Assembly: GCA_043743435.1 (NCBI GenBank)
Contig: JAYTWN010000242.1
Coordinates: 1-37,269 of the forward strand
Direction: 5' to 3'
DNA from: Acidimicrobiia bacterium
GTDB taxonomy: Bacteria > Actinomycetota > Acidimicrobiia > Acidimicrobiales > JANYDT01
Length of the DNA: 37,269 bases
Positions 1,938 to 23,195 of the stretch are shown here, one piece after another. The first letter of the stretch is position 1. Each line of letters starts with the position of its first letter. The translations under genes and the position numbers were made by a program. Under the pieces are notes generated by a model that saw only the letters and a program-made list of their open reading frames with translations, was not told where the DNA came from and did not search any database.

Positions 1938-3884
1938 ATGCGAAGCCGTCGAAGCAACCAAGTTGTCAAAGCACAATCGCTTGTGCGACGAACCTCAGCC
2001 CTAGCCGGCCTCACCCTCTGCGCTTTAGCGGTACTCGCACCTTTGTCCAGTGCGGCTCAAATCCGAACTCAAGGCGAGCTCCAAGCTTTTGGCGACCGCA
2101 CAAAACGCTTTGAGACCGTCCTCGACGTGCAGGCCAACGGCGACATGATCGTTACGGAAACCATCACCCAAGAATTCCAAGAACCCAACCGCCACGGCAT
2201 CGAACGGTTCATCCCGGAAACCCAAAACATCTCGTCGGATGGAGGGAAAGCAACGTATCGCCAATACCCAATTTCTGACGTCACGGTGGAAGCCGATGCG
2301 AGCACTCCATCACAAATCAGCATGAAACGAACAGGCTCCGACCCTGAAAAAATTCTGCGGATTCGGGTGGGTGACCCCAATGAAATCGTCCGAGGAACCC
2401 ATACGTATACCGTTCGCTACCTGGTCAAGGCCGTCGCCACCCGGTTTGAAAAAGACGAACCCGACAACCCCGCACACGATGAGCTCTACTGGAACGGCAT
2501 TGGGAACTCTTGGCGTCAACCGATCGACGTTGCCAAAGTAACGGTGAAGCTCCCCGCCAACATCACCCGGATTGCCTGTTTCACTGGGTACGTCGGATCC
2601 AAGACCCCGTGTGACGGAACTCCGAGCGGCCAAGAGGCAACCTTCAACCTGTCCTCGTTGCCCGCAGGCGATGCCATCACGGTGGTCGTTGGCAGTGCTC
2701 TGAACTCCTTGACAATCAACCCGTTGATTGTCGTTGAGGACAGCGGGCTCGTGAAACTACTGAAAAGTTCGTACCTGGGCATCCTGGCCTTTTTGGGTGG
2801 GGCTATCGCCGTCGTGCCCAAACTGTCCCGTGCTGGACGAGACCGTGCCTTTGCAGGATTGGCCCTTTCTGCATCCCAAGGGGAAGAAGGAACGGCAGTT
2901 GATAGACCCATCCGACGAGCCGACAAACGGGAAGGGCCCGTGGAGTTTGGTCCCCCCGAAAACGCCCGACCAGCGTTGCTCGGCGCGCTGGAAAAGCTGG
3001 GCGGAACGAAGGAACACATGACGGCGACGATCATCGACTTGGCTTCTCGTGGCTATTTGATTATCAATGAGGAACCAGACACCTGGCGTCTTCACCGCAC
3101 CCCTCTTGGCACATCTCTTGGCACATCTGCGCTAGCGCAAAGCCCCGGTAATGGCAACGGCATGGTTCCTAGCTTCAACAGCCGCAAAAACCCACCGCTC
3201 CACGACTACGAAATTCAGCTGCTGAACGATCTGTTTGCGTCGGGTGCAGAGGTTCGGTTGTCGGATCTCGACGACACGTTCGCTTCCAAGTACGCAGCCT
3301 TCGTGGGCCGGATTACCCAGGAAATCACCACCCATAAATGGACTACCGGCAATCCCACCACGGTTAAAGCTAAAGCCGCTGCCCCAGGGGGTTTGGCCAT
3401 CGTGCTCGGCATTGCGTCGCTGTTCCTGCACGTCGGACACGGTATCGCTGTTGGCTTGTTCGCGCTCGGCGCTCTTATCCTGGTGGTCGCCCAAGCTGCC
3501 CCGGCCAGGTCAAGTGCTGGGTCGGCCATGTTGGCCCGCACACAGGGTTTCCGGAGATTCCTTCTCGCTGGAGAACCACGACTTGAACACGCCGAACGGG
3601 CAAAGCTCTTCATTGATTTCCTGCCCTACGCCGTTGGATTCGGTATCACCAAACAATGGTCAAAACGCTTCGAAGACCTCACCTCGCTTCCTGAGACGGG
3701 CTGGTACCGAGGGCACGGACCAATGAGTCCGGTGATTTTCGGTGGTCGAATCAATGATTTTGACCGCAAAGCTTCAACGAACCTGACCAGCACCCCAACC
3801 CCAACCAACTCTGGCGGAGGCTCCGGATTTTCGGGCGGTTCCAGCGGAGGCGGCGGAGGTGGTGGTGGCGGCGGAAGCTGGTAG
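1938..3884 (+). CDS. DUF2207-family membrane protein (signal peptide, extracellular domain, C-terminal TM segments, poly-Gly tail)
   Basis: N-terminal signal-like segment RRTSALAGLTLCALAVLAPLSSAAQ. DUF2207-like N-domain (IVTETITQEF..HGIERFIP). Hydrophobic segments (LGILAFLGGAIAVV; GGLAIVLGIASLFLHVGHGIAVGLFALGALILVVA). Characteristic tail SGGGSGFSGGSSGGGGGGGGGGSW. Confidence 0.72.
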   Translation: MRSRRSNQVVKAQSLVRRTSALAGLTLCALAVLAPLSSAAQIRTQGELQAFGDRTKRFETVLDVQANGDMIVTETITQEFQEPNRHGIERFIPETQNISSDGGKATYRQYPISDVTVEADASTPSQISMKRTGSDPEKILRIRVGDPNEIVRGTHTYTVRYLVKAVATRFEKDEPDNPAHDELYWNGIGNSWRQPIDVAKVTVKLPANITRIACFTGYVGSKTPCDGTPSGQEATFNLSSLPAGDAITVVVGSALNSLTINPLIVVEDSGLVKLLKSSYLGILAFLGGAIAVVPKLSRAGRDRAFAGLALSASQGEEGTAVDRPIRRADKREGPVEFGPPENARPALLGALEKLGGTKEHMTATIIDLASRGYLIINEEPDTWRLHRTPLGTSLGTSALAQSPGNGNGMVPSFNSRKNPPLHDYEIQLLNDLFASGAEVRLSDLDDTFASKYAAFVGRITQEITTHKWTTGNPTTVKAKAAAPGGLAIVLGIASLFLHVGHGIAVGLFALGALILVVAQAAPARSSAGSAMLARTQGFRRFLLAGEPRLEHAERAKLFIDFLPYAVGFGITKQWSKRFEDLTSLPETGWYRGHGPMSPVIFGGRINDFDRKASTNLTSTPTPTNSGGGSGFSGGSSGGGGGGGGGGSW

Positions 3885-4207
3885 CCAAGCGAGGAGAAGA
3901 CCAACCCTTCGATGCCGACGTGGCCAAGCTCTTCGCTCATATCCACAAAATGGCTTTTCACGTCGGCAAAAAATGGCTGTTCTCGTTATCAAAAGGTGTG
4001 TGTTCTCGGGAAAATCGGGTGGAATCAGTAGGTGTACTGACCGAGTACTATTAGCGACTCCTCTTAACGCCGGTCCGCCTGTGTCTTTGCTGAGCCGCAA
4101 GGCAGTACTCCAGCAGAGATCAGCTTCGATCGAAAACGTTGGCGAGGCCCTGCATCGGACCGTCCGGTGCCCCACTCGAAAGAGCGGGACCAGAGGGAGG
4201 TAATACC

Positions 4208-5500: not shown

Positions 5501-5947
5501 ATGCCGCAAGTTATTCTTCGTGCTGATGTAACTGGTCTGGGAAAGCGCGGCGACATCGTCGAGGCTTCCGATGGCTACATCCGGAACTTCTTAGTGCCCC
5601 GCAAGCTCGCTATGCCCGCTGCTGCTGGCACGGTTGAGCAAGCCGCCAAGATGCGTAAATCCCGCGATCTTCGTGACGCTAAGGACCGTGCTGCTGGCGA
5701 GACCATCGCTCGTGCCTTGGTAGCTACGCCGATCAACATTTCGGCTAAAGCCCACGATGGCAAGTTGTTCGGTTCCGTTTCCGCTGCGCAGATCGTTGAA
5801 GCCGTAAAGGCCCAAACCTCCGTTGAGCTCGAAACCCGCACCGTGCACATCACCGACGCCATCAAGACCGTCGGCACCCACTCGGTCAACGTAAAGCTGC
5901 ACTCCGACGTGCTGTTTGCCATCACCGTTGAGGTTGCCGCCGCTTAG
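5501..5947 (+). CDS. rplI: 50S ribosomal protein L9
   Basis: MPQVILRADVTGLGKRGDIVEASDGYIRNFLVPRKLA is the canonical L9 N-domain. The length of 148 aa is typical. It starts 2 nt after the rpsR stop. Confidence 0.95.
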   Translation: MPQVILRADVTGLGKRGDIVEASDGYIRNFLVPRKLAMPAAAGTVEQAAKMRKSRDLRDAKDRAAGETIARALVATPINISAKAHDGKLFGSVSAAQIVEAVKAQTSVELETRTVHITDAIKTVGTHSVNVKLHSDVLFAITVEVAAA

Positions 5948-7843: not shown

Positions 7844-9109
7844 TTATGCAGCGTCGAGACCGAAAGCGGTGTGAAGTGCTTGCACCGCGGTTTCTACGTG
7901 GTCGGCTGCGATCACACATGACAGGCGGATGGTTGAGGTGGAGATCATCTCGATGTTCACACCTGCGTTGGCCAGGGTTTCGAACATGGTGGCCGATACG
8001 CCGGGGTTGGTGCGCATACCGGCGCCAACGAGCGACACCCGAGCGATGTTGGTTTGCGAGGTGACTGAAGCTGCACCGATGTCAGCCGAAACGGCGTTGC
8101 ACACTTCCAGGGCCGCGGGCAGATCTGATTTGGGGACGGTGAAGGAAATGTCGGTCTTCCCGTCGGTACCGGTGTTTTGCACGATCATGTCGACGTTGAC
8201 TCGGCGATCAGCCAAGGGGCGGAAAATGGCGGCCGAAACGCCAGGACGATCGGGCACTGCGCCAATGGTGATTTTGGCTTCCGACGTGTCATGGGTGATG
8301 CCAGAAACGATGGCCTGCTCCATGTTGCTCTCCTCATCGATGATGGTTCCCGGTTCCCAGGTGAAACTGGACCGGACGTGTAATTGCACATGGTGATTAC
8401 TGGCGTACTCCACGGCCCGAAGCGCAACAACGCCTGAACCGGAACCGGCCATTTCCAACATTTCTTCGAACGACACCCGAGCCATGCGATGCGCTTTGGG
8501 GGCGACTCGTGGATCAGCGGTGAACACCCCGGTTACGTCGGTATAGATCTCGCACGAATCGGCACCGAGCGCAGCAGCAACGGCAACGGCCGTGGTGTCA
8601 GATCCGCCGCGGCCCAGCGTGGTGATGTCTCGATCGGTGGACATGCCTTGGAATCCGGCAACGACAGGGACCATGCCCGCAGCCAATGCCGCTTTCAAAC
8701 GGTCGGCTTTTACCTCAAGAATTTTGGCTCGCCCGTGTTGGGTGTCGGTGAGAATTCCGGCCTGGGAACCGGTAAACGAAGCCGAAGGCACGCCAAGGTC
8801 GTCGATGGCCATGGCTACGAGCGCAGCGGAGATCCGTTCGCCCGTGGTGAGAAGCATGTCCATTTCACGGTTGTCGCCCTTGAGGGGAACGTCACCCTTT
8901 TTGGTGGCCTTTTCCACTGGGCCGGATTCGTTGGTGAGCACGGCGTTGGCCAGGCGAATCAGGTCGTCGGTGGTTTTGCCCATGGCGGACACGACGACAA
9001 CCACTTGATGGCCGCGCTTCACGGTTCGAGCCACGTTGTCGGCAACTTTACGAATACGTTCGGGATCGGAGACCGAAGAGCCGCCAAACTTTTGCACAAT
9101 CAAGGCCAC
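7844..9109 (-). CDS. lysC: Aspartate kinase (with two C-terminal ACT domains)
   Basis: MALIVQKFGGSSVSDPERI, VVVVSAMGKTTDDL, TTLGRGGSDTTAVAVAAAL and C-terminal ACT-type repeats. Length 421 aa. Confidence 0.95.
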   Translation of the reverse strand: MALIVQKFGGSSVSDPERIRKVADNVARTVKRGHQVVVVVSAMGKTTDDLIRLANAVLTNESGPVEKATKKGDVPLKGDNREMDMLLTTGERISAALVAMAIDDLGVPSASFTGSQAGILTDTQHGRAKILEVKADRLKAALAAGMVPVVAGFQGMSTDRDITTLGRGGSDTTAVAVAAALGADSCEIYTDVTGVFTADPRVAPKAHRMARVSFEEMLEMAGSGSGVVALRAVEYASNHHVQLHVRSSFTWEPGTIIDEESNMEQAIVSGITHDTSEAKITIGAVPDRPGVSAAIFRPLADRRVNVDMIVQNTGTDGKTDISFTVPKSDLPAALEVCNAVSADIGAASVTSQTNIARVSLVGAGMRTNPGVSATMFETLANAGVNIEMISTSTIRLSCVIAADHVETAVQALHTAFGLDAA

Positions 9110-14781: not shown

Positions 14782-16755
14782 ATGGCTGATAGTTCTGGTG
14801 CACCGGTTTCCTCGTCACTGCCGCGCCCCGATGCGCCTTGGGTGATGCGGACCTATTCGGGGCATTCCACGGCCACCGCTTCGAATGAGTTGTATCGCAC
14901 CAACCTTTCGAAGGGGCAAACGGGTCTATCGATTGCGTTTGACCTGCCGACACAAACCGGTTACGACCCTGATGCCCCCCAAGCTCGCGGTGAGGTCGGC
15001 AAAGTTGGGGTGCCCGTTGCCCATCTTGGTCATATGCGTACGTTGCTTGATGGCATTCCGGTTGATCAGATGAACACATCGATGACGATCAATGCCCCGG
15101 CGGCTTGGATGCTGGGCCTCTACATTGCCAACGCGGAAACCGAGGGTGTCGACCCTCGCGGACTGGCCGGCACAACCCAGAACGACATTGTCAAGGAGTA
15201 CCTGTCACGCGGTACGTACATCTATCCGCCAGTGCCTTCACGTCGGCTGATTGTGGACATGATTTCCTACACGGTGCAGCACCTGCCGAAGTGGAATCCG
15301 ATTAACGTGTGTTCTTATCATTTGCAGGAGGCCGGTGCTACTCCTACGCAAGAGTTGGCCTACGCGTTGGCGACGGCTATCGACGTGCTCGATGCGGTGC
15401 GCGATTCGGGTCAGGTGAAGCCCGAGGATTTTGGAGATGTGGTTGCCCGCATCTCGTTCTTCGTAAATGCGGGCATACGCTTCGTTGAAGAGATGTGCAA
15501 GATGCGGGCCTTCGGACAAATGTGGGAACGCATTTGTATCGAGCGCTACGGAGTTACTGATCCCAAGCAACGTCGGTTCCGTTATGGACTGCAAGTGAAT
15601 TCGCTTGGCCTAACCGAGGCACAGCCGGAGAACAATGTGCAACGCATTGTGTTGGAGATGCTTGGGGTGACTCTGTCTCGTGATGCTCGTGCCCGGGCGT
15701 TGCAGTTGCCTGCATGGAATGAAGCGTTGGGTTTGCCGCGTCCGTGGGATCAGCAGTGGTCGTTGCGAATGCAGCAGGTGTTGGCGTTTGAAACCGATCT
15801 CCTCGAATACCCCGACCTCTTCGAAGGCTCAGTGGTGGTTGAGGCCAAAGTCAACGAGATGATTGCCGCCGCCAGCGCCGAACTTGATGACGTACTGGCC
15901 CTCGGCGGGGCCTTCGAAGCAATAGGTGAACTGAAGGCTCGTTTGGTACGTTCACATACCGAACGAACCCGTAGAATTGAGAGCGGTGACCTGGCCGTGA
16001 TTGGAGTGAACCGATTTACTGAATCGGCTCCTTCCCCACTCGGTGGTGCCGACAATATTTTGACCGTAGACTCAGCCGTTGAAGCCGCCATGATCGCCGA
16101 TGTGCAAGCGTGGCGTGCCAATCGCGATTCAGTCGCGGCGGCCGCGGCTCTCGAAGCGGTGCGAGTTGCTGCCCGTGGCACAGAGAACATTATGGTCTCC
16201 ACGATTGCCGCGGCCCATGCAGGCGTCACAACGGGCGAATGGGCCGGGGCTTTGCGTGAAATCTTCGGCGAGTTTCGTGCTCCAACTGGCGTTGGAGGAG
16301 TAGGGGGTCATTCCAGTGCTGGCCTTTCAGCGATCGCCGCCCGTAATAAAGTCCGTGTTGGTGGGCCGCCGAAGTTGTTAGTAGCCAAGCCGGGTCTCGA
16401 CGGGCATTCCAACGGTGCCGAACAAATCGCAGTCGCTGCGCGTGACGCTGGGATGGAAGTTATCTACCAAGGCATTCGCCTTTCCCCAGAACAAATTGCT
16501 GCCGCGGCGCGCGACGAGGATCCACATGTCATCGGGCTCTCAGTACTCTCCGGTTCACATATGGAACTGGTTCCCGAAGTGATGCGTTGTTTAGCGGCTG
16601 TTGGTGTGGACGCGCCAGTGATCATTGGCGGCATTATTCCCGAAGCGGATCGCGCGGTGTTGATGGCCGCCGGTGTTGCTGCGGTCTACACCCCAAAGGA
16701 TTACGACATCACCCGCATCATGGAAGAAATAAGCGCGCTTGCTGATTATCGATAA
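14782..16755 (+). CDS. meaA: Fused B12-dependent acyl-CoA mutase (catalytic TIM-barrel plus C-terminal cobalamin-binding domain), MeaA/ethylmalonyl-CoA-mutase-like
   Basis: PWVMRTYSGHSTATASNELYRTNLSKGQTGLSIAFDLPTQTGYDPD...GEVGKVGVPVAHLGHMR...MNTSMTINAPAAW. The C-terminal B12 motif is KPGLDGHSNGAEQIAV...VIGLSVLSGSH (DxHxxG...SxL...GG). The R-T-Y-x-G-H-S N-terminal signature is what I remember for the MeaA/Ecm clade, as opposed to R-Q-Y-A-G-F in MCM/ICM. Substrate assignment is therefore tentative. Confidence 0.85.
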   Translation: MADSSGAPVSSSLPRPDAPWVMRTYSGHSTATASNELYRTNLSKGQTGLSIAFDLPTQTGYDPDAPQARGEVGKVGVPVAHLGHMRTLLDGIPVDQMNTSMTINAPAAWMLGLYIANAETEGVDPRGLAGTTQNDIVKEYLSRGTYIYPPVPSRRLIVDMISYTVQHLPKWNPINVCSYHLQEAGATPTQELAYALATAIDVLDAVRDSGQVKPEDFGDVVARISFFVNAGIRFVEEMCKMRAFGQMWERICIERYGVTDPKQRRFRYGLQVNSLGLTEAQPENNVQRIVLEMLGVTLSRDARARALQLPAWNEALGLPRPWDQQWSLRMQQVLAFETDLLEYPDLFEGSVVVEAKVNEMIAAASAELDDVLALGGAFEAIGELKARLVRSHTERTRRIESGDLAVIGVNRFTESAPSPLGGADNILTVDSAVEAAMIADVQAWRANRDSVAAAAALEAVRVAARGTENIMVSTIAAAHAGVTTGEWAGALREIFGEFRAPTGVGGVGGHSSAGLSAIAARNKVRVGGPPKLLVAKPGLDGHSNGAEQIAVAARDAGMEVIYQGIRLSPEQIAAAARDEDPHVIGLSVLSGSHMELVPEVMRCLAAVGVDAPVIIGGIIPEADRAVLMAAGVAAVYTPKDYDITRIMEEISALADYR

Positions 16756-17776: not shown

Positions 17777-18094
17777 TTAGATCCCGAGGATTGATCGGAG
17801 ACCTTCGTCGATGTCGTCTATCAGTATTTTCGGCAGGCGGCCGGCTTGCTTGCCGAGTAACGATCGATCAATCAGTTCAAGGCCAAGGGGGATTGCCACA
17901 GAGTCCTGTGGGAGCCCGCTCGATTTGGCGGGAAGAAAGACATTGCCAGCCAGGCCCGCTCGGGCGACGTTCGATGTGACGGGCACCACGTGGGTCTGCC
18001 ACACCTTCACACTGAGGACTTCGTCGGAAGACACGACCACGCACGGCCTCCGTTTGTCTAGTTCGATCCAGTACACTGAGCCCCTGATCACCAT
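17777..18094 (-). CDS. Type II toxin, PemK/MazF-family endoribonuclease
   Basis: MVIRGSVYWIELDKRRPCVVVSSDEV...THVVPVTSNV...LPQDSVAIPLGLELIDRSLLGKQAGRLP is the typical MazF/PemK pattern: G-x-[IV]-Y-W-[IV], RP-x-VV[VI]S and VVP[IV]TS. Length 105 aa. Confidence 0.85.
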   Translation of the reverse strand: MVIRGSVYWIELDKRRPCVVVSSDEVLSVKVWQTHVVPVTSNVARAGLAGNVFLPAKSSGLPQDSVAIPLGLELIDRSLLGKQAGRLPKILIDDIDEGLRSILGI

Positions 18095-18321
18095 GGCGCA
18101 GAACGCTCCATACGTGTCATTGCTTTCAGTGATGCAGCCTTGCTTGGAGGTTTAGTCCCCGCTAGTTCAGCGTCAGCCAACAGTTGCTGGGCGAGGCTCA
18201 TCCCCGGATGGGTGGCGGCGTGATGTCGGAGCTGATTGGCAACCCAGGTGGAGAATGGAACATCCAGGCTGTCAATGATCGGCACGACGTCGTCGGGAAC
18301 GCTGATGGTTTTGTTCGGCAC
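18088..18321 (-). CDS. Cognate antitoxin (RHH/MazE-like N-terminus, disordered C-terminus)
   Basis: This 77-aa ORF lies immediately upstream of the toxin and overlaps it by 7 nt (ATGGTGA). The N-terminus KTISVPDDVVPIIDSL..PFSTWVANQLRHH resembles ribbon-helix-helix antitoxins. Confidence 0.7.
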   Translation of the reverse strand: MPNKTISVPDDVVPIIDSLDVPFSTWVANQLRHHAATHPGMSLAQQLLADAELAGTKPPSKAASLKAMTRMERSAPW

Positions 18322-18511
18322 GTACGTATCTTACATACATATAACTTTCTTGCCGAGAGCGAGGGCTGCCGTGCGGAAATGCAGCAGAGGTAGGAGAGTA
18401 CGCCCTGAACGTAGATGGCCGACGGATTACCTGCGTCCCAGCAAGGTAGCGGGTCAATGCAGTGTCGATGAGATTTGGTTTCGCGAATCGAGTTTCCAGC
18501 ACCAGTTCGGG

Positions 18512-20059
18512 CTAGCTAATCTCGGGAATTGGATGGGGTGGGGGTGGGCCCACGTAGCGGGCACTTGGTCGGATGATCTTTGAATCGGCCGCCTGCTCAA
18601 GGATGTTGGCTGACCATCCAATCACTCGGCTCGAGGCAAACGTGGGTGTAAACATGGCTGGGGAAAGGCCAACAGTTGCCATCACTACGCCTGCGAAGAA
18701 CTCGACGTTGGTGTACAACTCCCGTCCAGGTTTGAGCTCGGCGAGAAGTTCCACGATTCTGCGCTCCACCTTCACGCCGAGCTCAGCGAGTGGACCTCCG
18801 AGGGAAATTGCGATGTCGCGCAACATCAACGACCTGGGATCATCGGTTCGGTAGACAGGATGACCAAATCCCATGATCCGCTCCCCATTTTCAATCTTCG
18901 GTCGCACCACTTCGTCGATTCGATCAACGGTTCCGATCTCATCGAGAAGGTCGAGTGCTCGGCTTGGCGCTCCGCCGTGCAAAGGTCCCGACAGAGAGGC
19001 GACACCACCTACAACAGCTGCAGCGCAATCGGCCCCCGTCGACGCGATCACGCGGGCGGTAAATGTTGACGCGTTGAATCCATGATCGATCGTGGACACG
19101 AGGTACTGCTCAATGGCTCGAACATGTTGCGGTGACCCCTCCACGCCGTTCATCATCCATAAATAGTTTTGTGCATACGTCAAGCCGGGTTTTGGATCAA
19201 TGGGTGTTTGAGCAATCCCAAGTCGGTACAGTGTGCAAAGGATGACCGGAGTTACCGCACAAAGTCTGAGGAGGTTCTGGCGGCGCTCAGCTGGGCTTGC
19301 ATCGAGCACAGGCCGCATTCGATCATGTGCGCCGATCATGGACAGCGCGCTGCGAAGGCCGTCGAGCGGACCAACGCCGTTCACTAGCGATGGCAGCAGG
19401 TGCGCGATTGGTTCAGGAATGGTGCGCATGGCGTTCACTTCTTCAGTAAATGCGTTTCGTTCTGCGAGGGTGGTTGGCAGCGAACCATCGATCATTAAAC
19501 GCCAAACGTCTTCGAGACTTCTGTTCCGTGCGAGGTCGGTAGCTGAGTATTGGCGATAGTGATAGAAGCCTTCGCGTCCGCGAACGTCACCCACTTCGGT
19601 TTCTGAAACGACAACACCTTTAAGGCCACGGGGGACCTCGGGAACAGTGTCCGATGGTGAAGTGATGTTTGCAATTCGCATCAAGTCTCGAAGCGAGATG
19701 ACGCCGACAACTTCACCACCATGTACGACAGGGGCGTGTCGATAACCGCGTTCGCGCATTGTCCTCAGCGCGGTCGACCCATCCTCTTTGGCGTCAATGA
19801 CATCGACAGGGCTACTCATAACTTCGCTCAAGGGCGAATCAATACTCCCGTCTTTGGCAAGCTGGCGAAGGACGTCGCGTTCGGTAACGATGCCGAGAAG
19901 TGTTCGCCCTTCGACAATCAATACCGAGCCAACCCGTTGATCATGCATTCGGCGTATTGCCGTGGAAAGAGGCTCATCCGGTGATGCAGTAACCGCGGGA
20001 TGAGTCGCAATCGAATCGACAGAGAGGAGGGCGGTGGCGGTGGCGGTGGCTGTAGTCAT
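18512..20059 (-). CDS. CBS-pair domain fused to a citrate synthase / 2-methylcitrate synthase-family enzyme
   Basis: Two CBS motifs occupy the N-terminal 150 aa or so (RVGSVLIVEGRTLLGIVTERDVLRQL; YRHAPVVHGGEVVGVISLRDLMRI). The citrate-synthase core follows: GLKGVVVSETEVG...FYHYRQYS, GPLHGGAPS, GFGHPVYRTDDPR, LYTNVEFFAG, SRVIGWSANILEQ and IIRPSARYVGP. The start is ATG 20059 or ATG 20098. Confidence 0.88.
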   Translation of the reverse strand: MTTATATATALLSVDSIATHPAVTASPDEPLSTAIRRMHDQRVGSVLIVEGRTLLGIVTERDVLRQLAKDGSIDSPLSEVMSSPVDVIDAKEDGSTALRTMRERGYRHAPVVHGGEVVGVISLRDLMRIANITSPSDTVPEVPRGLKGVVVSETEVGDVRGREGFYHYRQYSATDLARNRSLEDVWRLMIDGSLPTTLAERNAFTEEVNAMRTIPEPIAHLLPSLVNGVGPLDGLRSALSMIGAHDRMRPVLDASPAERRQNLLRLCAVTPVILCTLYRLGIAQTPIDPKPGLTYAQNYLWMMNGVEGSPQHVRAIEQYLVSTIDHGFNASTFTARVIASTGADCAAAVVGGVASLSGPLHGGAPSRALDLLDEIGTVDRIDEVVRPKIENGERIMGFGHPVYRTDDPRSLMLRDIAISLGGPLAELGVKVERRIVELLAELKPGRELYTNVEFFAGVVMATVGLSPAMFTPTFASSRVIGWSANILEQAADSKIIRPSARYVGPPPPHPIPEIS

Positions 20060-20096
20060 ACAACTGATAGTGCTCTCGTGGCTTGTCACAGTCAAC

Positions 20097-20128
20097 ATTG
20101 ATTTTGATCAACGTTGATTTTGATCAAC
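20097..20128. promoter_or_regulatory. Two tandem 16-bp palindromic sites ((A/G)TTGATTTTGATCAAC) in the divergent promoter region of the two citrate-synthase paralogs
   Basis: ATTGATTTTGATCAAC (20097-20112) is followed directly by GTTGATTTTGATCAAC (20113-20128). Each holds the inverted repeat GTTGAT-N4-ATCAAC and the perfect 8-bp palindrome TTGATCAA. A further GTCAAC half-site lies at 20091-20096. Confidence 0.6.
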
Positions 20129-20149
20129 TATATGTGTACGCTTCAGTTT

Positions 20150-21373
20150 ATGACTCGCATGTCCACGGCCCAGGCGGCGAAGCGGCTCGGTGTGAAGCCG
20201 TCGACGATTTATGCGTATGTGAGCCGCGGAATACTGACCAGCGTTCAGTCGCTCGACGGTCGAAATAGCATGTTTTCCACTTCAGAGGTTGAACAGCTAG
20301 CGAGGCGCGGAAAACCTCGTCAATCGAGTCGTTCCCATGCGCTGGATTTCGCAATAGACACCTCGATTACGTCAATCACGCAACAGGAATTGCGCTACCG
20401 CGGGTACAACGCGATAGCGCTCGCCGCAACGGCGACTTTTGAACAAGTCGCCGATCTCTTGCTCATTGGTACATTGCCGACGCATACGTCTTGGCCGGTT
20501 TGCACAGTACCGGTTCCTGCGTCGCGGTCGATCTTTGATCACGTTGGATTCGCAACGATTCTCGCTGGGGCGACGGATCCTTTTCGAAGCGATCTCGCTC
20601 CAAGTTCCGTGGCCCAAACGTCGCGCACCCTTATAGCGGCAATCGTTGATTCACTCCCCACCCAAGGTGAGGGACGTACGCCACGTTTGCAGATTGGTGA
20701 CGAGTCGTATCTCTCTACGATCGCTGGTCGTCTTTGGACGAAACTGTCTCCTCGACGACCCACTTCGGGGATGATGTCGGTGCTCAATGCGGCCCTGGTG
20801 CTCCTAGCCGATCATGAGCTCGCGGTATCAACGGTCGCTGCCCGTGTGACTGCCTCGACACACGCCGATCCCTATGCGGTCGTGCGGGCAGGAACGGCTG
20901 CGATGAGCGGTCCCCTACATGGGGGTGCAAGCCGCTCGGCTAGGGAGATGCTTGACAATGCGCTGGCCGAGAGAGGCCGAACTGCGGCGAGTATCGACCG
21001 CGCCGCAAGCGAAGCGCTTTCCCGTTTTGGTGCATACCCAGGCTTCGGCCACAAGGTGTACAAAAGCGGTGATCCCCGAGCTGAGAAATTGCTGGCGATG
21101 TTGCGTGAAGTCGCAGGCGGCACTTCGGAGATGAGTGTTGTCGATGGAATAGTAAGTGCAATTGGGAAACGCCGCGACATACAGCCGAACATGGATCTCG
21201 CGCTGGCAGCGCTTGGTGTCGTGGCCAATTTCCCAGAAGATGCGGGTGAGTTCATTTTCTCGATCGCTCGTGTGGCCGGTTGGTGTGCACATGCGATCGA
21301 GGAGTACGCAGAAGAGCCACTCCGCTTCCGAGCCCGCGCAATCTTTGTCGACCCCGCGGGTCCGCAAATGTAG
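20150..21373 (+). CDS. MerR/excisionase-type HTH DNA-binding domain fused to a citrate synthase-family domain
   Basis: N-terminus MSTAQAAKRLGVKPSTIYAYVSRGILTS...FSTSEVEQLARRG (HTH_17-like). The citrate-synthase fold follows: ITQQELRYRGYNAIALAATATFEQVADLLLIGTLP, GPLHGGAS, YPGFGHKVYKSGDPR, QPNMDLALAAL and ARVAGWCAHAIEEY. The start is ATG 20150 or 20159. The ORF opens at TTG 20114, inside the operator repeats. Confidence 0.85.
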   Translation: MTRMSTAQAAKRLGVKPSTIYAYVSRGILTSVQSLDGRNSMFSTSEVEQLARRGKPRQSSRSHALDFAIDTSITSITQQELRYRGYNAIALAATATFEQVADLLLIGTLPTHTSWPVCTVPVPASRSIFDHVGFATILAGATDPFRSDLAPSSVAQTSRTLIAAIVDSLPTQGEGRTPRLQIGDESYLSTIAGRLWTKLSPRRPTSGMMSVLNAALVLLADHELAVSTVAARVTASTHADPYAVVRAGTAAMSGPLHGGASRSAREMLDNALAERGRTAASIDRAASEALSRFGAYPGFGHKVYKSGDPRAEKLLAMLREVAGGTSEMSVVDGIVSAIGKRRDIQPNMDLALAALGVVANFPEDAGEFIFSIARVAGWCAHAIEEYAEEPLRFRARAIFVDPAGPQM

Positions 21374-21547
21374 CGAGCATTTCAAGGAGCCCACCCGGCA
21401 ATCAGTAATACTACAAATACATAGTTGACGTTAAGGGCCGCACCGATCTGGGGAACCTGGGAGCTAGGGGTTTTTCCGTCCGTTTGACTCCGTGGCGAAA
21501 AGCATTGTGCTGTGCTCGATTGAGCACTCTCCTTTCGGCTGGTTCTC

Positions 21548-22279
21548 TTAGTGGAAATCGTGACCGTGTTTGAGCATGTGGGCGGCGCCGTGGGGTTCGT
21601 TGAGGGCGGAGTTTTTGCCGAAGATGCTTTCTTTTTGTGCGCCGTAGGCCTTTCGGTTTGCGCCGAGCGGTGCCAGTTCTGATGCTCGTCTGCGTGCGGC
21701 ATCGAGGAGTTCATGGGCGCTGGTGATTTGGCTAACGATTCCCGCAGCAAGTGCATCCGGTCCAGCCCATCGGCGAGCAAGTTGGACGGTTTCAAAGAAG
21801 GTATGTGCAGATAGTTTGTGGCGAAACAGGGCGAGTTCGGGCCGGGGAATGACCATTCCTAGTTGCATTTCGTTGGCGCATACAAAGCCTCGGTCGGCCC
21901 GCATGATGCGAACGTCATGGCACATTGCAGTCATCAGCCCAGCACCAAACGCGTGACCGTTGATTGCTGCCACGGTTGGCACGGGCAACGTTATGATCCG
22001 TCCCATGAGGGCCATGAACTCGTCACCAAAAACAGATCGATCACCACCGCTAGGCGAAGCTTCGACTCCGTCGGTGGATGCGGAGATCCAATCCAGGTCG
22101 AGACCGTTAGAAAAGAACTTCTCGTTGCTCGATCGAGTGATGAGCGCAGCGGGTCCGGTCGAGGCCTCTACCTCGTCGAGCGCGTTCGCATAGGCGCGCA
22201 CGAAGGTGGTGTTCCATCGGTTTTCACCGTCGTTCATGGTGAGGATGAACAGCTCACCGTCTCGTTCTAGATCGATCAT
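21548..22279 (-). CDS. Enoyl-CoA hydratase/isomerase (crotonase) family protein
   Basis: FILTMNDGENRWN...ALITRSSNEKFFSNGLDLDW...PVPTVAAINGHAFGAGLMTAMCHDVRIM. ATG 22279 is preceded by AAGGAA. The longer ORF to 22357 starts inside a tandem repeat and is unlikely. Confidence 0.85.
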   Translation of the reverse strand: MIDLERDGELFILTMNDGENRWNTTFVRAYANALDEVEASTGPAALITRSSNEKFFSNGLDLDWISASTDGVEASPSGGDRSVFGDEFMALMGRIITLPVPTVAAINGHAFGAGLMTAMCHDVRIMRADRGFVCANEMQLGMVIPRPELALFRHKLSAHTFFETVQLARRWAGPDALAAGIVSQITSAHELLDAARRRASELAPLGANRKAYGAQKESIFGKNSALNEPHGAAHMLKHGHDFH

Positions 22280-22345
22280 GGTTTCCTTATTGGTGTGTGC
22301 CGAGCCGATGATTGCATCGGGTGAGTCATTGAGGTTCGGCCTAAT

Positions 22346-22401
22346 AGGGTGCGTCATTTAGGGTGCGTCATCCAGGGTGAGTCATTCAAGGTAGGTCCTG
22401 G
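22346..22401. repeat. Four tandem 14-bp units (AGGGTG(C/A)GTCAT-NN, the last degenerate) plus one dispersed copy at 22318-22331
   Basis: Direct reading gives AGGGTGCGTCATTT, AGGGTGCGTCATCC, AGGGTGAGTCATTC, AAGGTAGGTCCTGG. The dispersed copy is CGGGTGAGTCATTG, 15 nt upstream. The array lies between the two crotonase genes. Confidence 0.85.
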
Positions 22402-22454
22402 AGTGTTCGTGATGCACTGCGTTGCAGGTTACAGATTCTTGTGCTTACACCACA

Positions 22455-23195
22455 TCAACTTACAAACGTGTTGAGACGCGCGCCCGCACCGGACATTGGG
22501 TATTCGGTGGCGAATTCGTAGGCGAGCCCATCGTTGAGGCCATTGTTTTCCGCAGCCCTGTACAAATCTTTGTATGCGCGCTGAGAAGCTGGTGAACCTT
22601 CAGTGAGCATGACAATCAACGCATCGGCTCGTGCATCAAGTTCTGCCAGCGGGCACGATTCGGCGGCCATGCCCCAAACGGCAGCATCGGATCCCAGGAA
22701 CACACGAGCGGTGTGGCTCAACCATCGGGCCCGTGTGATGCCCACGGCAGCTACCAACCGCTGGCTCATGCCCCAAGTTGGACGCAAGCCCCATTTGGCG
22801 TGGGTGTCGCCCATTTTGGCTTCGTCGGCCACGATCATGATGTCGCAGGCGAGGGCGATTTCCAATGCCCCGGTGAAGCAGGCACCGTTGACTTTGGCCA
22901 CTGTGACTTTGTTCATCGTCGACAAAAGCTCGGCAGCTCTTCGGGCAGGAGTGTTGAGCAAATCAGAGACATCGCCGCCATCGATTCCAGCTGCCGCAAT
23001 CGCTTTGAGATCTACACCCGCGCAGAAGGCACGCCCAACACCGGTCAGAACAACTACCGTCACGGCAGTGTCACCGGCTGCGCCTTCTAGTGCGACGACG
23101 AGTTGGCTCAGTAGCTCCGGTGTAAGTGCATTGAGTGCTTCGGGGCGGTTAAGTTTAATGGTGCAAACGTTTCTTGCGGTCTCGGTCAGAATCAT
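22455..23195 (-). CDS. Enoyl-CoA hydratase/isomerase (crotonase) family protein
   Basis: VCTIKLNRPEALNALTPEL...VVVLTGVGRAFCAGVDLKAI...KVTVAKVNGACFTGALEIALACDIMIV. Confidence 0.88.
   Translation of the reverse strand: MILTETARNVCTIKLNRPEALNALTPELLSQLVVALEGAAGDTAVTVVVLTGVGRAFCAGVDLKAIAAAGIDGGDVSDLLNTPARRAAELLSTMNKVTVAKVNGACFTGALEIALACDIMIVADEAKMGDTHAKWGLRPTWGMSQRLVAAVGITRARWLSHTARVFLGSDAAVWGMAAESCPLAELDARADALIVMLTEGSPASQRAYKDLYRAAENNGLNDGLAYEFATEYPMSGAGARLNTFVS

Follow-up and report, generated by a model that had tools for sequence, protein, structure and literature searches.

Why a bacterium should keep two citrate-synthase paralogs head to head, one fused to a pair of CBS domains and the other to a helix-turn-helix (HTH) DNA-binding domain, is the question raised by a locus in contig JAYTWN010000242.1 of an Acidimicrobiia bacterium (assembly GCA_043743435.1). 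The window (the whole stretch of DNA that was analysed, a complete contig of 37269 nucleotides (nt) with about 57% G+C and a flat composition) carried on its minus strand a gene for a CBS-CBS-citrate synthase (CBS-CS; 18512-20059, 515 amino acids (aa) plus stop) and on its plus strand a gene for a protein with an HTH_17 domain in front of a citrate-synthase fold (HTH-CS; 20150-21373, 407 aa plus stop). Both assignments were made from Pfam matches and the NCBI-called products, and that of HTH-CS also from an AlphaFold model. The genes are divergent and are separated by 90 bp of intergenic DNA (20060-20149). An earlier note, made from the sequence of this locus, had proposed a self-contained metabolic sensing circuit, in which HTH-CS would bind DNA according to its metabolite occupancy and control the neighbouring synthase. 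The comparative data described below make it on balance probable that HTH-CS is a one-component transcription factor with a citrate-synthase-fold sensor and that the two genes together make up a conserved regulatory cassette. That HTH-CS binds a predicted operator in the intergenic DNA and regulates the pair appears likely. In its predicted make-up HTH-CS is of the one-component or trigger-enzyme type, with a DNA-binding domain and an enzyme-fold domain in one chain and a conserved candidate site.

Linkage of the two genes was surveyed by scanning one genome per species with two conserved HTH-CS peptide patterns. Relatives of HTH-CS turned up in the genomes of at least 598 species, chiefly Actinomycetota including Streptomyces, and all locus counts refer to the best 80 of the at least 598 stretches that encode them (703 kb of loci in total). 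These 80 loci came from Acidimicrobiia metagenome-assembled genomes (MAGs), many Streptomyces, Nonomuraea, Actinoplanes, Amycolatopsis and Kribbella, and also from single MAGs labelled Deltaproteobacteria, Polyangiaceae and Terriglobales. A CitA-type citrate synthase stood head to head with HTH-CS in 65 of the 80 loci, as a divergent, adjacent gene without CBS in 52 and with CBS in 13. The partner was an HMGL-fold, homocitrate/isopropylmalate-synthase-like enzyme in 8 loci, and no condensing-enzyme neighbour was present beside HTH-CS in the remaining 7. When look-ups were anchored on CBS-CS in long contigs, a divergent HTH_17+Citrate_synt neighbour was found in four out of four, with otherwise unrelated flanking genes. 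Both architectures were also common in metagenomes, where many hits for the one and for the other came from contigs of equal length. The two genes are thus linked elsewhere as divergent neighbours, as the earlier note's proposal had supposed, and the conserved unit is an HTH-CS gene with a divergent acyl-CoA:2-oxoacid condensing enzyme.

Two parts of the proposed circuit fared less well. A CBS pair was present in 13 of the 65 citrate-synthase partners, mostly in Acidimicrobiia, and absent from all Streptomyces partners; since most partners do without it, the pair is regarded as a lineage-specific addition to the enzyme and not as the core of the circuit. Nor is the partner a synthase paralog throughout, given the HMGL-type enzymes. 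What stands of the self-contained circuit is the conserved divergent unit with its candidate operator. The HMGL partners matched PF00682 and HCS_D2, with a TIGR02660 match (about 1e-70) that did not reach the cut-off; they fell under every NCBIfam equivalog cut-off, and could be Re-citrate-synthase-type enzymes. Such an HMGL-fold gene, divergent from HTH-CS and with the same operator, was seen in loci L013, L024, L032, L050, L067, L069 and L076 (approximately 2500-3950, minus strand), and also in L106 and L180. A physical association of the two paralogs as a heterodimer was considered as a reason for their linkage, and was set aside because some loci have an unrelated HMGL-fold enzyme in the partner's place or no partner at all. 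In one of the loci counted as having no adjacent partner (L062, Streptomyces sp. NBC_01537) a 400-aa open reading frame (ORF; 2678-3880) lies between the citrate-synthase and HTH-CS genes, which are about 1.5 kb apart; from its N-terminal sequence we read it as a putative insertion sequence (IS)-type transposase.

The intergenic DNA of the window contains a 16-nt tandem repeat, TCAAC(A/G)TTGATTTTGA, forming two 10-bp palindromes, TCAACATTGA (20092-20101) and TCAACGTTGA (20108-20117), and a third half-site, TCAAC (20124-20128), at the same 16-nt spacing. This element (20092-20128) is the predicted operator. Within the 37-kb window, exact TCAAYRTTGAT occurred only at 20092-20118; no further exact match was found there, and the hits with one mismatch, at 5921 and 35700, were within chance expectation. 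Alignment of the loci gave a consensus of about 24 bp, tGTCAAyrTTGAT-n3-5-rTCAAyrT, located just upstream of nearly every HTH-CS gene and duplicated in the window. The exact palindrome TCAAYRTTGA was present in 71 copies less than 300 bp upstream of the HTH-CS start in 67 of the 80 loci, with a peak between -50 and -100, compared to 4 copies in the remaining approximately 680 kb; most of the loci without it carried the variant TGTAAAyGTTGATCAAGTCAATGT. The motif was also found in the loci retrieved independently via CBS-CS. It was kept whether the partner was a citrate synthase, an HMGL enzyme or missing, and across phyla, and its presence without a citrate-synthase partner points to autoregulation by HTH-CS. 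The earlier note had proposed the fragment 20060-20149 for a test of binding by HTH-CS, and the strongly conserved candidate operator within it supports that choice.

The specificity of the motif was assessed in a blind scan of metagenomes with the motif as query. It returned 120 stretches, in 67 of which an HTH-CS start lay within 400 bp. The 53 others included 36 on contigs with less than 55% G+C, in which chance alone should produce AT-rich sequences of this kind (23 nt); in 8 of the 17 high-GC stretches that remained, the motif had the partner gene (for citrate synthase or the HMGL enzyme) next to it where the contig ended, or an HTH-CS gene in the vicinity. On high-GC contigs the motif was thus tied to the cassette in 75 of 84 cases. 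A motif essentially private to the cassette is expected of a dedicated, autoregulated local regulator and not of a global one. A few sites were found apart from an HTH-CS gene. On one metagenome contig (L160, 1627-1650) the operator precedes a CitA-type citrate synthase lacking CBS, with no HTH-CS gene on the other side, which suggests that HTH-CS encoded at another locus can act in trans as well. Away from HTH-CS genes on high-GC contigs, a dense cluster of TTGAY/RTCAA repeats was noted in L163 (approximately 8320-8400), and a perfect palindrome, AATGTTGATGACATCAACATT, was shared by L156 (near 1596) and L182 (near 2139); such sites may have arisen by chance, may serve a related HTH protein or may mark additional targets.

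The position of the operator also bears on the start codons. The longest ORFs run from 18512 to 20098 (minus) and from 20114 to 21373 (plus), so that the start of each protein had to be chosen. The longer starts, ATG 20098 and TTG 20114, are regarded as spurious because the first falls within the conserved operator and the second only translates operator DNA, homologues of CBS-CS and HTH-CS do not align upstream of ATG 20059 and ATG 20150, and the NCBI-called products of 515 and 407 aa have exactly the lengths obtained from the two latter codons. With these starts the gene pair is as the earlier note had described it: ORFs and Pfam matches gave two citrate-synthase paralogs, one with a CBS pair and one with an HTH, facing away from each other with starts about 90 bp apart, and all the peptide motifs it had quoted were found in the ORF translations. 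Its concern that the N-terminal extensions might lie upstream of the real starts was answered by invariant residues in approximately 100 homologues each, by confident AlphaFold models and by the NCBI starts, and both the CBS and the HTH regions are taken to be translated.

The N-terminus of HTH-CS matched HTH_17 (PF12728; 3e-07, 31.0 bits against a cut-off of 27) and passed MerR_1 (22.6 bits against 21.6), but not the excisionase family TIGR01764 'excise' (26.2 against 28.8). In the AlphaFold model (predicted local distance difference test score, pLDDT, 93.7), residues 4-54 (20159-20311, plus strand) form a winged helix-turn-helix of the excisionase/MerR-like type with the order beta-alpha-alpha-beta-beta-alpha (strand 3-5, helices 6-13 and 17-25, strands 31-33 and 40-43, helix 44-53). 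Invariance of the HTH within the 80 loci is partly by construction, because these were retrieved with HTH-CS peptide patterns; a set of metagenome proteins that was not selected on the HTH is free of that bias, and in about 100 such homologues K16, Y21, Y23, S25, R26 and G27 were invariant. Searched alone against the PDB, the HTH gave no significant match; SoxR (0.039) and chains 6ama and 6amk (0.076), which we take to be BldC-DNA complexes, serve as a lead only. The architecture is not that of a classical MerR protein, as no long helix follows the HTH in the model and a flexible basic linker leads instead to the citrate-synthase fold. At the start of this flexible, low-confidence segment (residues 51-70) lies a motif, RRG(R/K)PR (residues 52-57; 20303-20320, plus strand), that was delimited from the homologue alignment and in which G54, P56 and R57 were invariant and R53 and R55 at least 90% conserved. 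To our eye the motif may resemble the core of an AT-hook. We note side by side this AT-hook-like sequence in the linker and the AT-rich operator, which stands out as an island in a genome of high GC content.

The remainder of HTH-CS is a citrate-synthase-fold domain (20351-21316, plus strand) that passed the cut-off of Pfam Citrate_synt (PF00285; 4.9e-60, 203.9 bits, model positions 7-351 of 357) and fell under every NCBIfam citrate-synthase cut-off, the best score being 163 bits against a required 421. A Foldseek search with the model returned PrpC, CitA and other citrate synthases as top matches (template modelling (TM) score 0.7-0.76, normalised to the PrpC/CitA structures). Among 200 homologues the pocket and catalytic residues were conserved as follows: H222 in 200, H257 in 198, H301 in 187, R310 in 200, D349 in 198, R374 in 199 and R394 in 200. 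Judged from this alignment, HTH-CS retains the catalytic His-His-Asp of citrate synthase as H257, H301 and D349 and the oxaloacetate-binding arginines as R310, R374 and R394, and its pocket is clearly under selection. H301, the second catalytic His, was replaced by Gln in 12 homologues and by Met in one; members lacking it, among them P0044 and P0061 (Iamia sp.), have an otherwise intact pocket and are obvious candidates for forms that only sense. Within the same genomes, identity to the window proteins was about 40% for HTH-CS and about 60% for the core of the partner, and the greater divergence of HTH-CS was counted as regulator-like evolution. The citrate-synthase fold undergoes a large open-to-closed movement on binding oxaloacetate. 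For the earlier note's suggestion that occupancy by oxaloacetate or acyl-CoA would control DNA binding, the evidence consists of the conserved pocket residues.

Promoters were read by eye with a loose actinobacterial TAnnnT -10 consensus, and the coordinates were verified. The putative HTH-CS promoter (20114-20142, plus strand) consists of a -35 box TTGATT (20114-20119), a spacer of 17 nt and a -10 box TACGCT (20137-20142), 7 nt from ATG 20150. The putative CBS-CS promoter (20067-20095, minus strand) has a -35 box TTGACT (20095 to 20090), again a 17-nt spacer, and a -10 box CACTAT (20072 to 20067), 7 nt from ATG 20059. By this geometry both transcripts may be leaderless. Each putative -35 box overlaps one operator palindrome, that of CBS-CS the left one. 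In the Streptomyces loci the tGTCAA flank of the operator corresponds to TTGACA on the strand of the partner, and TACGGT followed by 6 or 7 nt and ATG precedes HTH-CS. Since a strict E. coli-type scan of 18300-21600 found no promoter, these promoters and the leaderless reading are offered as putative. Terminator-like hits were no more numerous than in shuffled sequence and were disregarded.

The mechanism proposed from these features is as follows. The winged HTH, aided by the basic RRG(R/K)PR arm, would bind the operator of about 24 bp, which overlaps the back-to-back -35 boxes of the predicted HTH-CS promoter and of the divergent CitA-type promoter. Free HTH-CS in its open form, presumably a dimer, would occupy the operator and repress both genes; oxaloacetate, with or without acyl-CoA, would close the fold upon binding in the retained pocket, the HTHs would move and the DNA would be released. 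The second citrate synthase would thereby be made when its own substrates accumulate, and the CBS pair acquired by the enzyme in this lineage would add nucleotide-dependent allostery. For this sign of control, a repressor released by substrate, the evidence leaves us close to evenly divided, on the doubtful side. Repression is favoured by near-consensus -35 boxes that the operator covers. The partner box in particular (TTGACT in the window, TTGACA in Streptomyces) is near consensus and 17-18 nt from a plausible -10, as is typical of intrinsically active promoters under repression.

The same cassette and operator could also work with the opposite logic, HTH-CS being an activator that provides -35 recognition or stands in for it, or a co-repressor that would need bound product (citrate or CoA) in order to bind DNA, so that control would be by feedback and not feed-forward. 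Activators of the class II and MerR types likewise bind where this operator lies, abutting or overlapping the -35 regions, and the Streptomyces HTH-CS genes, for which no good -35 hexamer was found 17 nt from the TACGGT -10 box, would fit an activator-dependent promoter; the conserved pocket residues that bind oxaloacetate are known from citrate-synthase structures to bind citrate as well. Against this are, besides the near-consensus partner box, the spacers of 17 nt, which differ from the 19-20 nt of MerR-activated promoters, and the coverage of both -35 boxes by the operator at once. We consider this alternative unlikely, while giving it more weight than the other rivals.

It is less probable still that HTH-CS serves chiefly as a third isozyme of citrate or methylcitrate synthase, with an HTH that has no gene-specific regulatory role, the motif being made up of promoter elements or belonging to another regulator. 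The nearly complete conservation of the catalytic His-His-Asp and the substrate arginines would suit such an isozyme, and 'citrate synthase' is the database name of HTH-CS proteins. In addition, another regulator, MtrA, binds the intergenic region of the divergent S. coelicolor genes sco5831 (citA3) and sco5832 (citA4) (PMC12323332). The published 16-nt MtrA site matched, with at most three mismatches, only the intergenic DNA of 19 of the Streptomyces loci, and the homologous pair sco5831/sco5832 has the same arrangement (PMC12323332); that site is, however, a different sequence that neighbours the motif. An isozyme also accords poorly with the HTH residues that are invariant in the homologues not selected on the HTH, with a motif that follows the HTH-CS gene across phyla whatever its partner, with the near exclusivity of the motif to the cassette on high-GC contigs, a misfit for a global regulator, and with the replacement of the second catalytic His by Gln or Met. 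The idea that the arrangement is accidental or part of a mobile element, prompted by the excisionase-type HTH family and by the PemK toxin gene directly downstream of CBS-CS, is effectively refuted by the comparative data: dozens of genera keep the two genes together, amid neighbours that have nothing in common. The listed ORFs of the window did not visibly include an integrase (seven neighbours were scanned against Pfam), the GC content is flat across the window, and the HTH is fused in frame to an enzyme fold of 350 aa.

Several points weigh against HTH-CS as a ligand-controlled regulator of the pair. Its DNA binding, its ligand binding and its regulatory sign have been drawn from comparative data, and the same holds for the dimeric state that is presumed for it and for the ligand of the CBS pair. 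The HTH_17 score is modestly above the cut-off, and that for TIGR01764 just below its own. The TTGA/TTGACA portion of the conserved motif may represent -35 elements and not operator, and the strict scan found no promoter in the region. An adjoining condensing-enzyme partner is missing in 7 of the 80 loci. Full conservation of the catalytic residues would suit an active enzyme as well as a sensor, and catalysis is not kept throughout, as shown by the 13 of 200 homologues that have lost the second His. A more ambitious version of the proposal is tentative, and we hold it to be possible but doubtful: HTH-CS would be a catalytically competent trigger enzyme and the first citrate-synthase-fold transcription factor, its open-closed catalytic cycle with oxaloacetate and acyl-CoA setting operator occupancy, reporting the flux that enters the tricarboxylic acid (TCA) cycle, and tuning a CitA-type or, in some genera, an HMGL-type enzyme.

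The enzyme encoded on the other side of the operator was analysed in the same manner. CBS-CS matched Citrate_synt over its full length (1.3e-102, 343.9 bits against a cut-off of 27, model positions 1-357 of 357; core at 18563-19627, minus strand) and CBS (PF00571) twice (3.9e-26), while its best NCBIfam match, PRK12350 'citrate synthase', scored 323.2 bits, just below the subfamily cut-off of 332. Among solved structures, the nearest to the core was B. subtilis CitA (2c6x, 2.3e-79), followed by the CitA proteins of M. tuberculosis and M. bovis. In 96 homologues H361, H400, E453, R409, R478, R497 and R501 of the core were invariant; the acid/base triad His-His-Glu (H361, H400, E453) occupies the positions of His274, His320 and Asp375 of the pig enzyme, and the alignment showed the catalytic acid to be Glu and not Asp, as in 2c6x. 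B. subtilis CitA is an active minor citrate synthase.

The CBS pair, or Bateman module, of CBS-CS (19670-20020, minus strand; about residues 14-130 of the 515-aa protein) was delimited from Pfam, alignment and model. G56, T59, E60, D62, G119, R124 and D125 were invariant in the 96 homologues, and the repeats GIVTERD and GVISLRD both carry the G-h-h-T/S-x-x-D motif, by which CBS domains contact the ribose of adenosine ligands. The AlphaFold model (pLDDT 86.2) was confident in the CBS region, and a disordered linker of about 30 residues (134-165) joined the pair to the core. Direct allosteric control of CBS-CS by an adenosine-containing nucleotide is probably what the pair provides; for the more specific role of an energy-charge sensor, suggested by the earlier note's energy-charge-gated synthase, the evidence consists of the conserved G-h-h-T/S-x-x-D motifs. 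At the extreme N-terminus a (GGCGGT)n hexamer repeat (20030-20053) encodes a Thr-Ala repeat (TATATATA) that was unaligned in homologues and disordered in the model.

Downstream of CBS-CS, the PemK/MazF-type toxin gene (17777-18094, minus strand; Pfam 3.6e-13) has its start overlapped by an ORF of 77 aa (18088-18321, minus strand) that is probably the antitoxin. A gene for a methylmalonyl-CoA-mutase-like protein fused to a B12-binding domain and two enoyl-CoA hydratase/isomerase genes are also nearby (14782-16755, plus strand, and 21548-23195, minus strand); these genes of acyl-CoA metabolism were not conserved beside the cassette in other genomes.

In the literature searched (open-access full text and bioRxiv) no description was found of an HTH-citrate synthase fusion or of such a regulatory cassette, of a CBS pair on citrate synthase, or of an enzyme-fold regulator that uses the citrate-synthase fold or HTH_17 in this way. 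The only mentions of sco5831/sco5832 there call them 'putative citrate synthases'. Databases already show both architectures, so that what is new is seen in the function, in the operator and in the conservation of the cassette. HTH-CS proteins, present in hundreds of Actinomycetota, are counted in S. coelicolor (sco5831) as a citrate-synthase isozyme; if the proposal is true, 'extra citrate synthases' such as citA3/sco5831 would be transcription factors, with changes to metabolic reconstructions and to the reading of omics data on entry into the TCA cycle in this phylum. The citrate-synthase fold would then be one more of the few enzyme folds that have become sensor domains of one-component regulators, and the replacement of a citrate-synthase-fold partner by one with the HMGL fold, while the regulator stays the same, would be a case of non-orthologous target replacement. 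The fusion of a CBS pair to the enzyme would represent an undescribed route to nucleotide control of citrate synthase. A precise predicted operator (tGTCAAyrTTGAT-n3-5-rTCAAyrT), together with a genetically tractable model organism, amounts to a ready experiment.

Among known systems, one close in arrangement is B. subtilis citA-citR, in which a CitA-type secondary citrate synthase likewise stands head to head with the gene of its own regulator; the likeness extends to the enzyme, B. subtilis CitA having the nearest solved structure to the CBS-CS core and sharing with it the NVEF Glu variant. The regulators differ, CitR being of the LysR type without a citrate-synthase fold, while here the putative regulator is an HTH_17 citrate-synthase paralogue and the enzyme carries a CBS pair. 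M. tuberculosis CitA (Rv0889c), a second citrate synthase, belongs to the same CitA-type subfamily as the CBS-CS core, and its structures include a pyruvate-bound form and C143 variants; unlike CBS-CS it has no CBS pair, and no HTH-CS partner was seen reported for it (mycobacterial genomes were outside the comparison). For the CBS module, IMP dehydrogenase, CBS-pyrophosphatase and AMPK gamma offer parallels, with a CBS pair bearing G-h-h-T/S-x-x-D, a flexible linker and a metabolic enzyme.

On the DNA-binding side, BldC of Streptomyces and the excisionases Xis and TorI have an HTH of the same broad type (HTH_17, MerR_1). They bind repeated sites, to which the 15-16-nt repeat in the operator is comparable; they are small stand-alone domains without a sensor, and their sequence similarity to the HTH is not significant (E 0.04-0.08), so that the resemblance is a lead only. 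Classical MerR regulators differ from HTH-CS in their coiled-coil dimerisation helix, their C-terminal effector pocket and their promoter spacers of 19-20 bp, compared to the 17 nt read here. With regard to the fold, to our knowledge Caulobacter crescentus CitA has no DNA-binding domain and acts indirectly, unlike HTH-CS with its fused HTH and cognate predicted operator. It is, all the same, a citrate-synthase-fold protein with a regulatory use, reported to control the cell cycle without need of its catalytic activity and termed a trigger enzyme (PMC7083601). HTH-CS also resembles the enzyme-fold regulators, such as MocR/GabR/PdxR (a GntR HTH with an aminotransferase fold), PutA, BirA, NrtR and the ROK repressors, all of which join a DNA-binding domain to a complete enzyme fold with a conserved pocket. 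BirA and PutA catalyse, while GabR and NrtR only sense. In these systems (GabR, PutA, BirA, NrtR and others) the regulator's gene is autoregulated and an adjoining pathway gene is under its control, which is the arrangement predicted here for HTH-CS and its divergent condensing enzyme.

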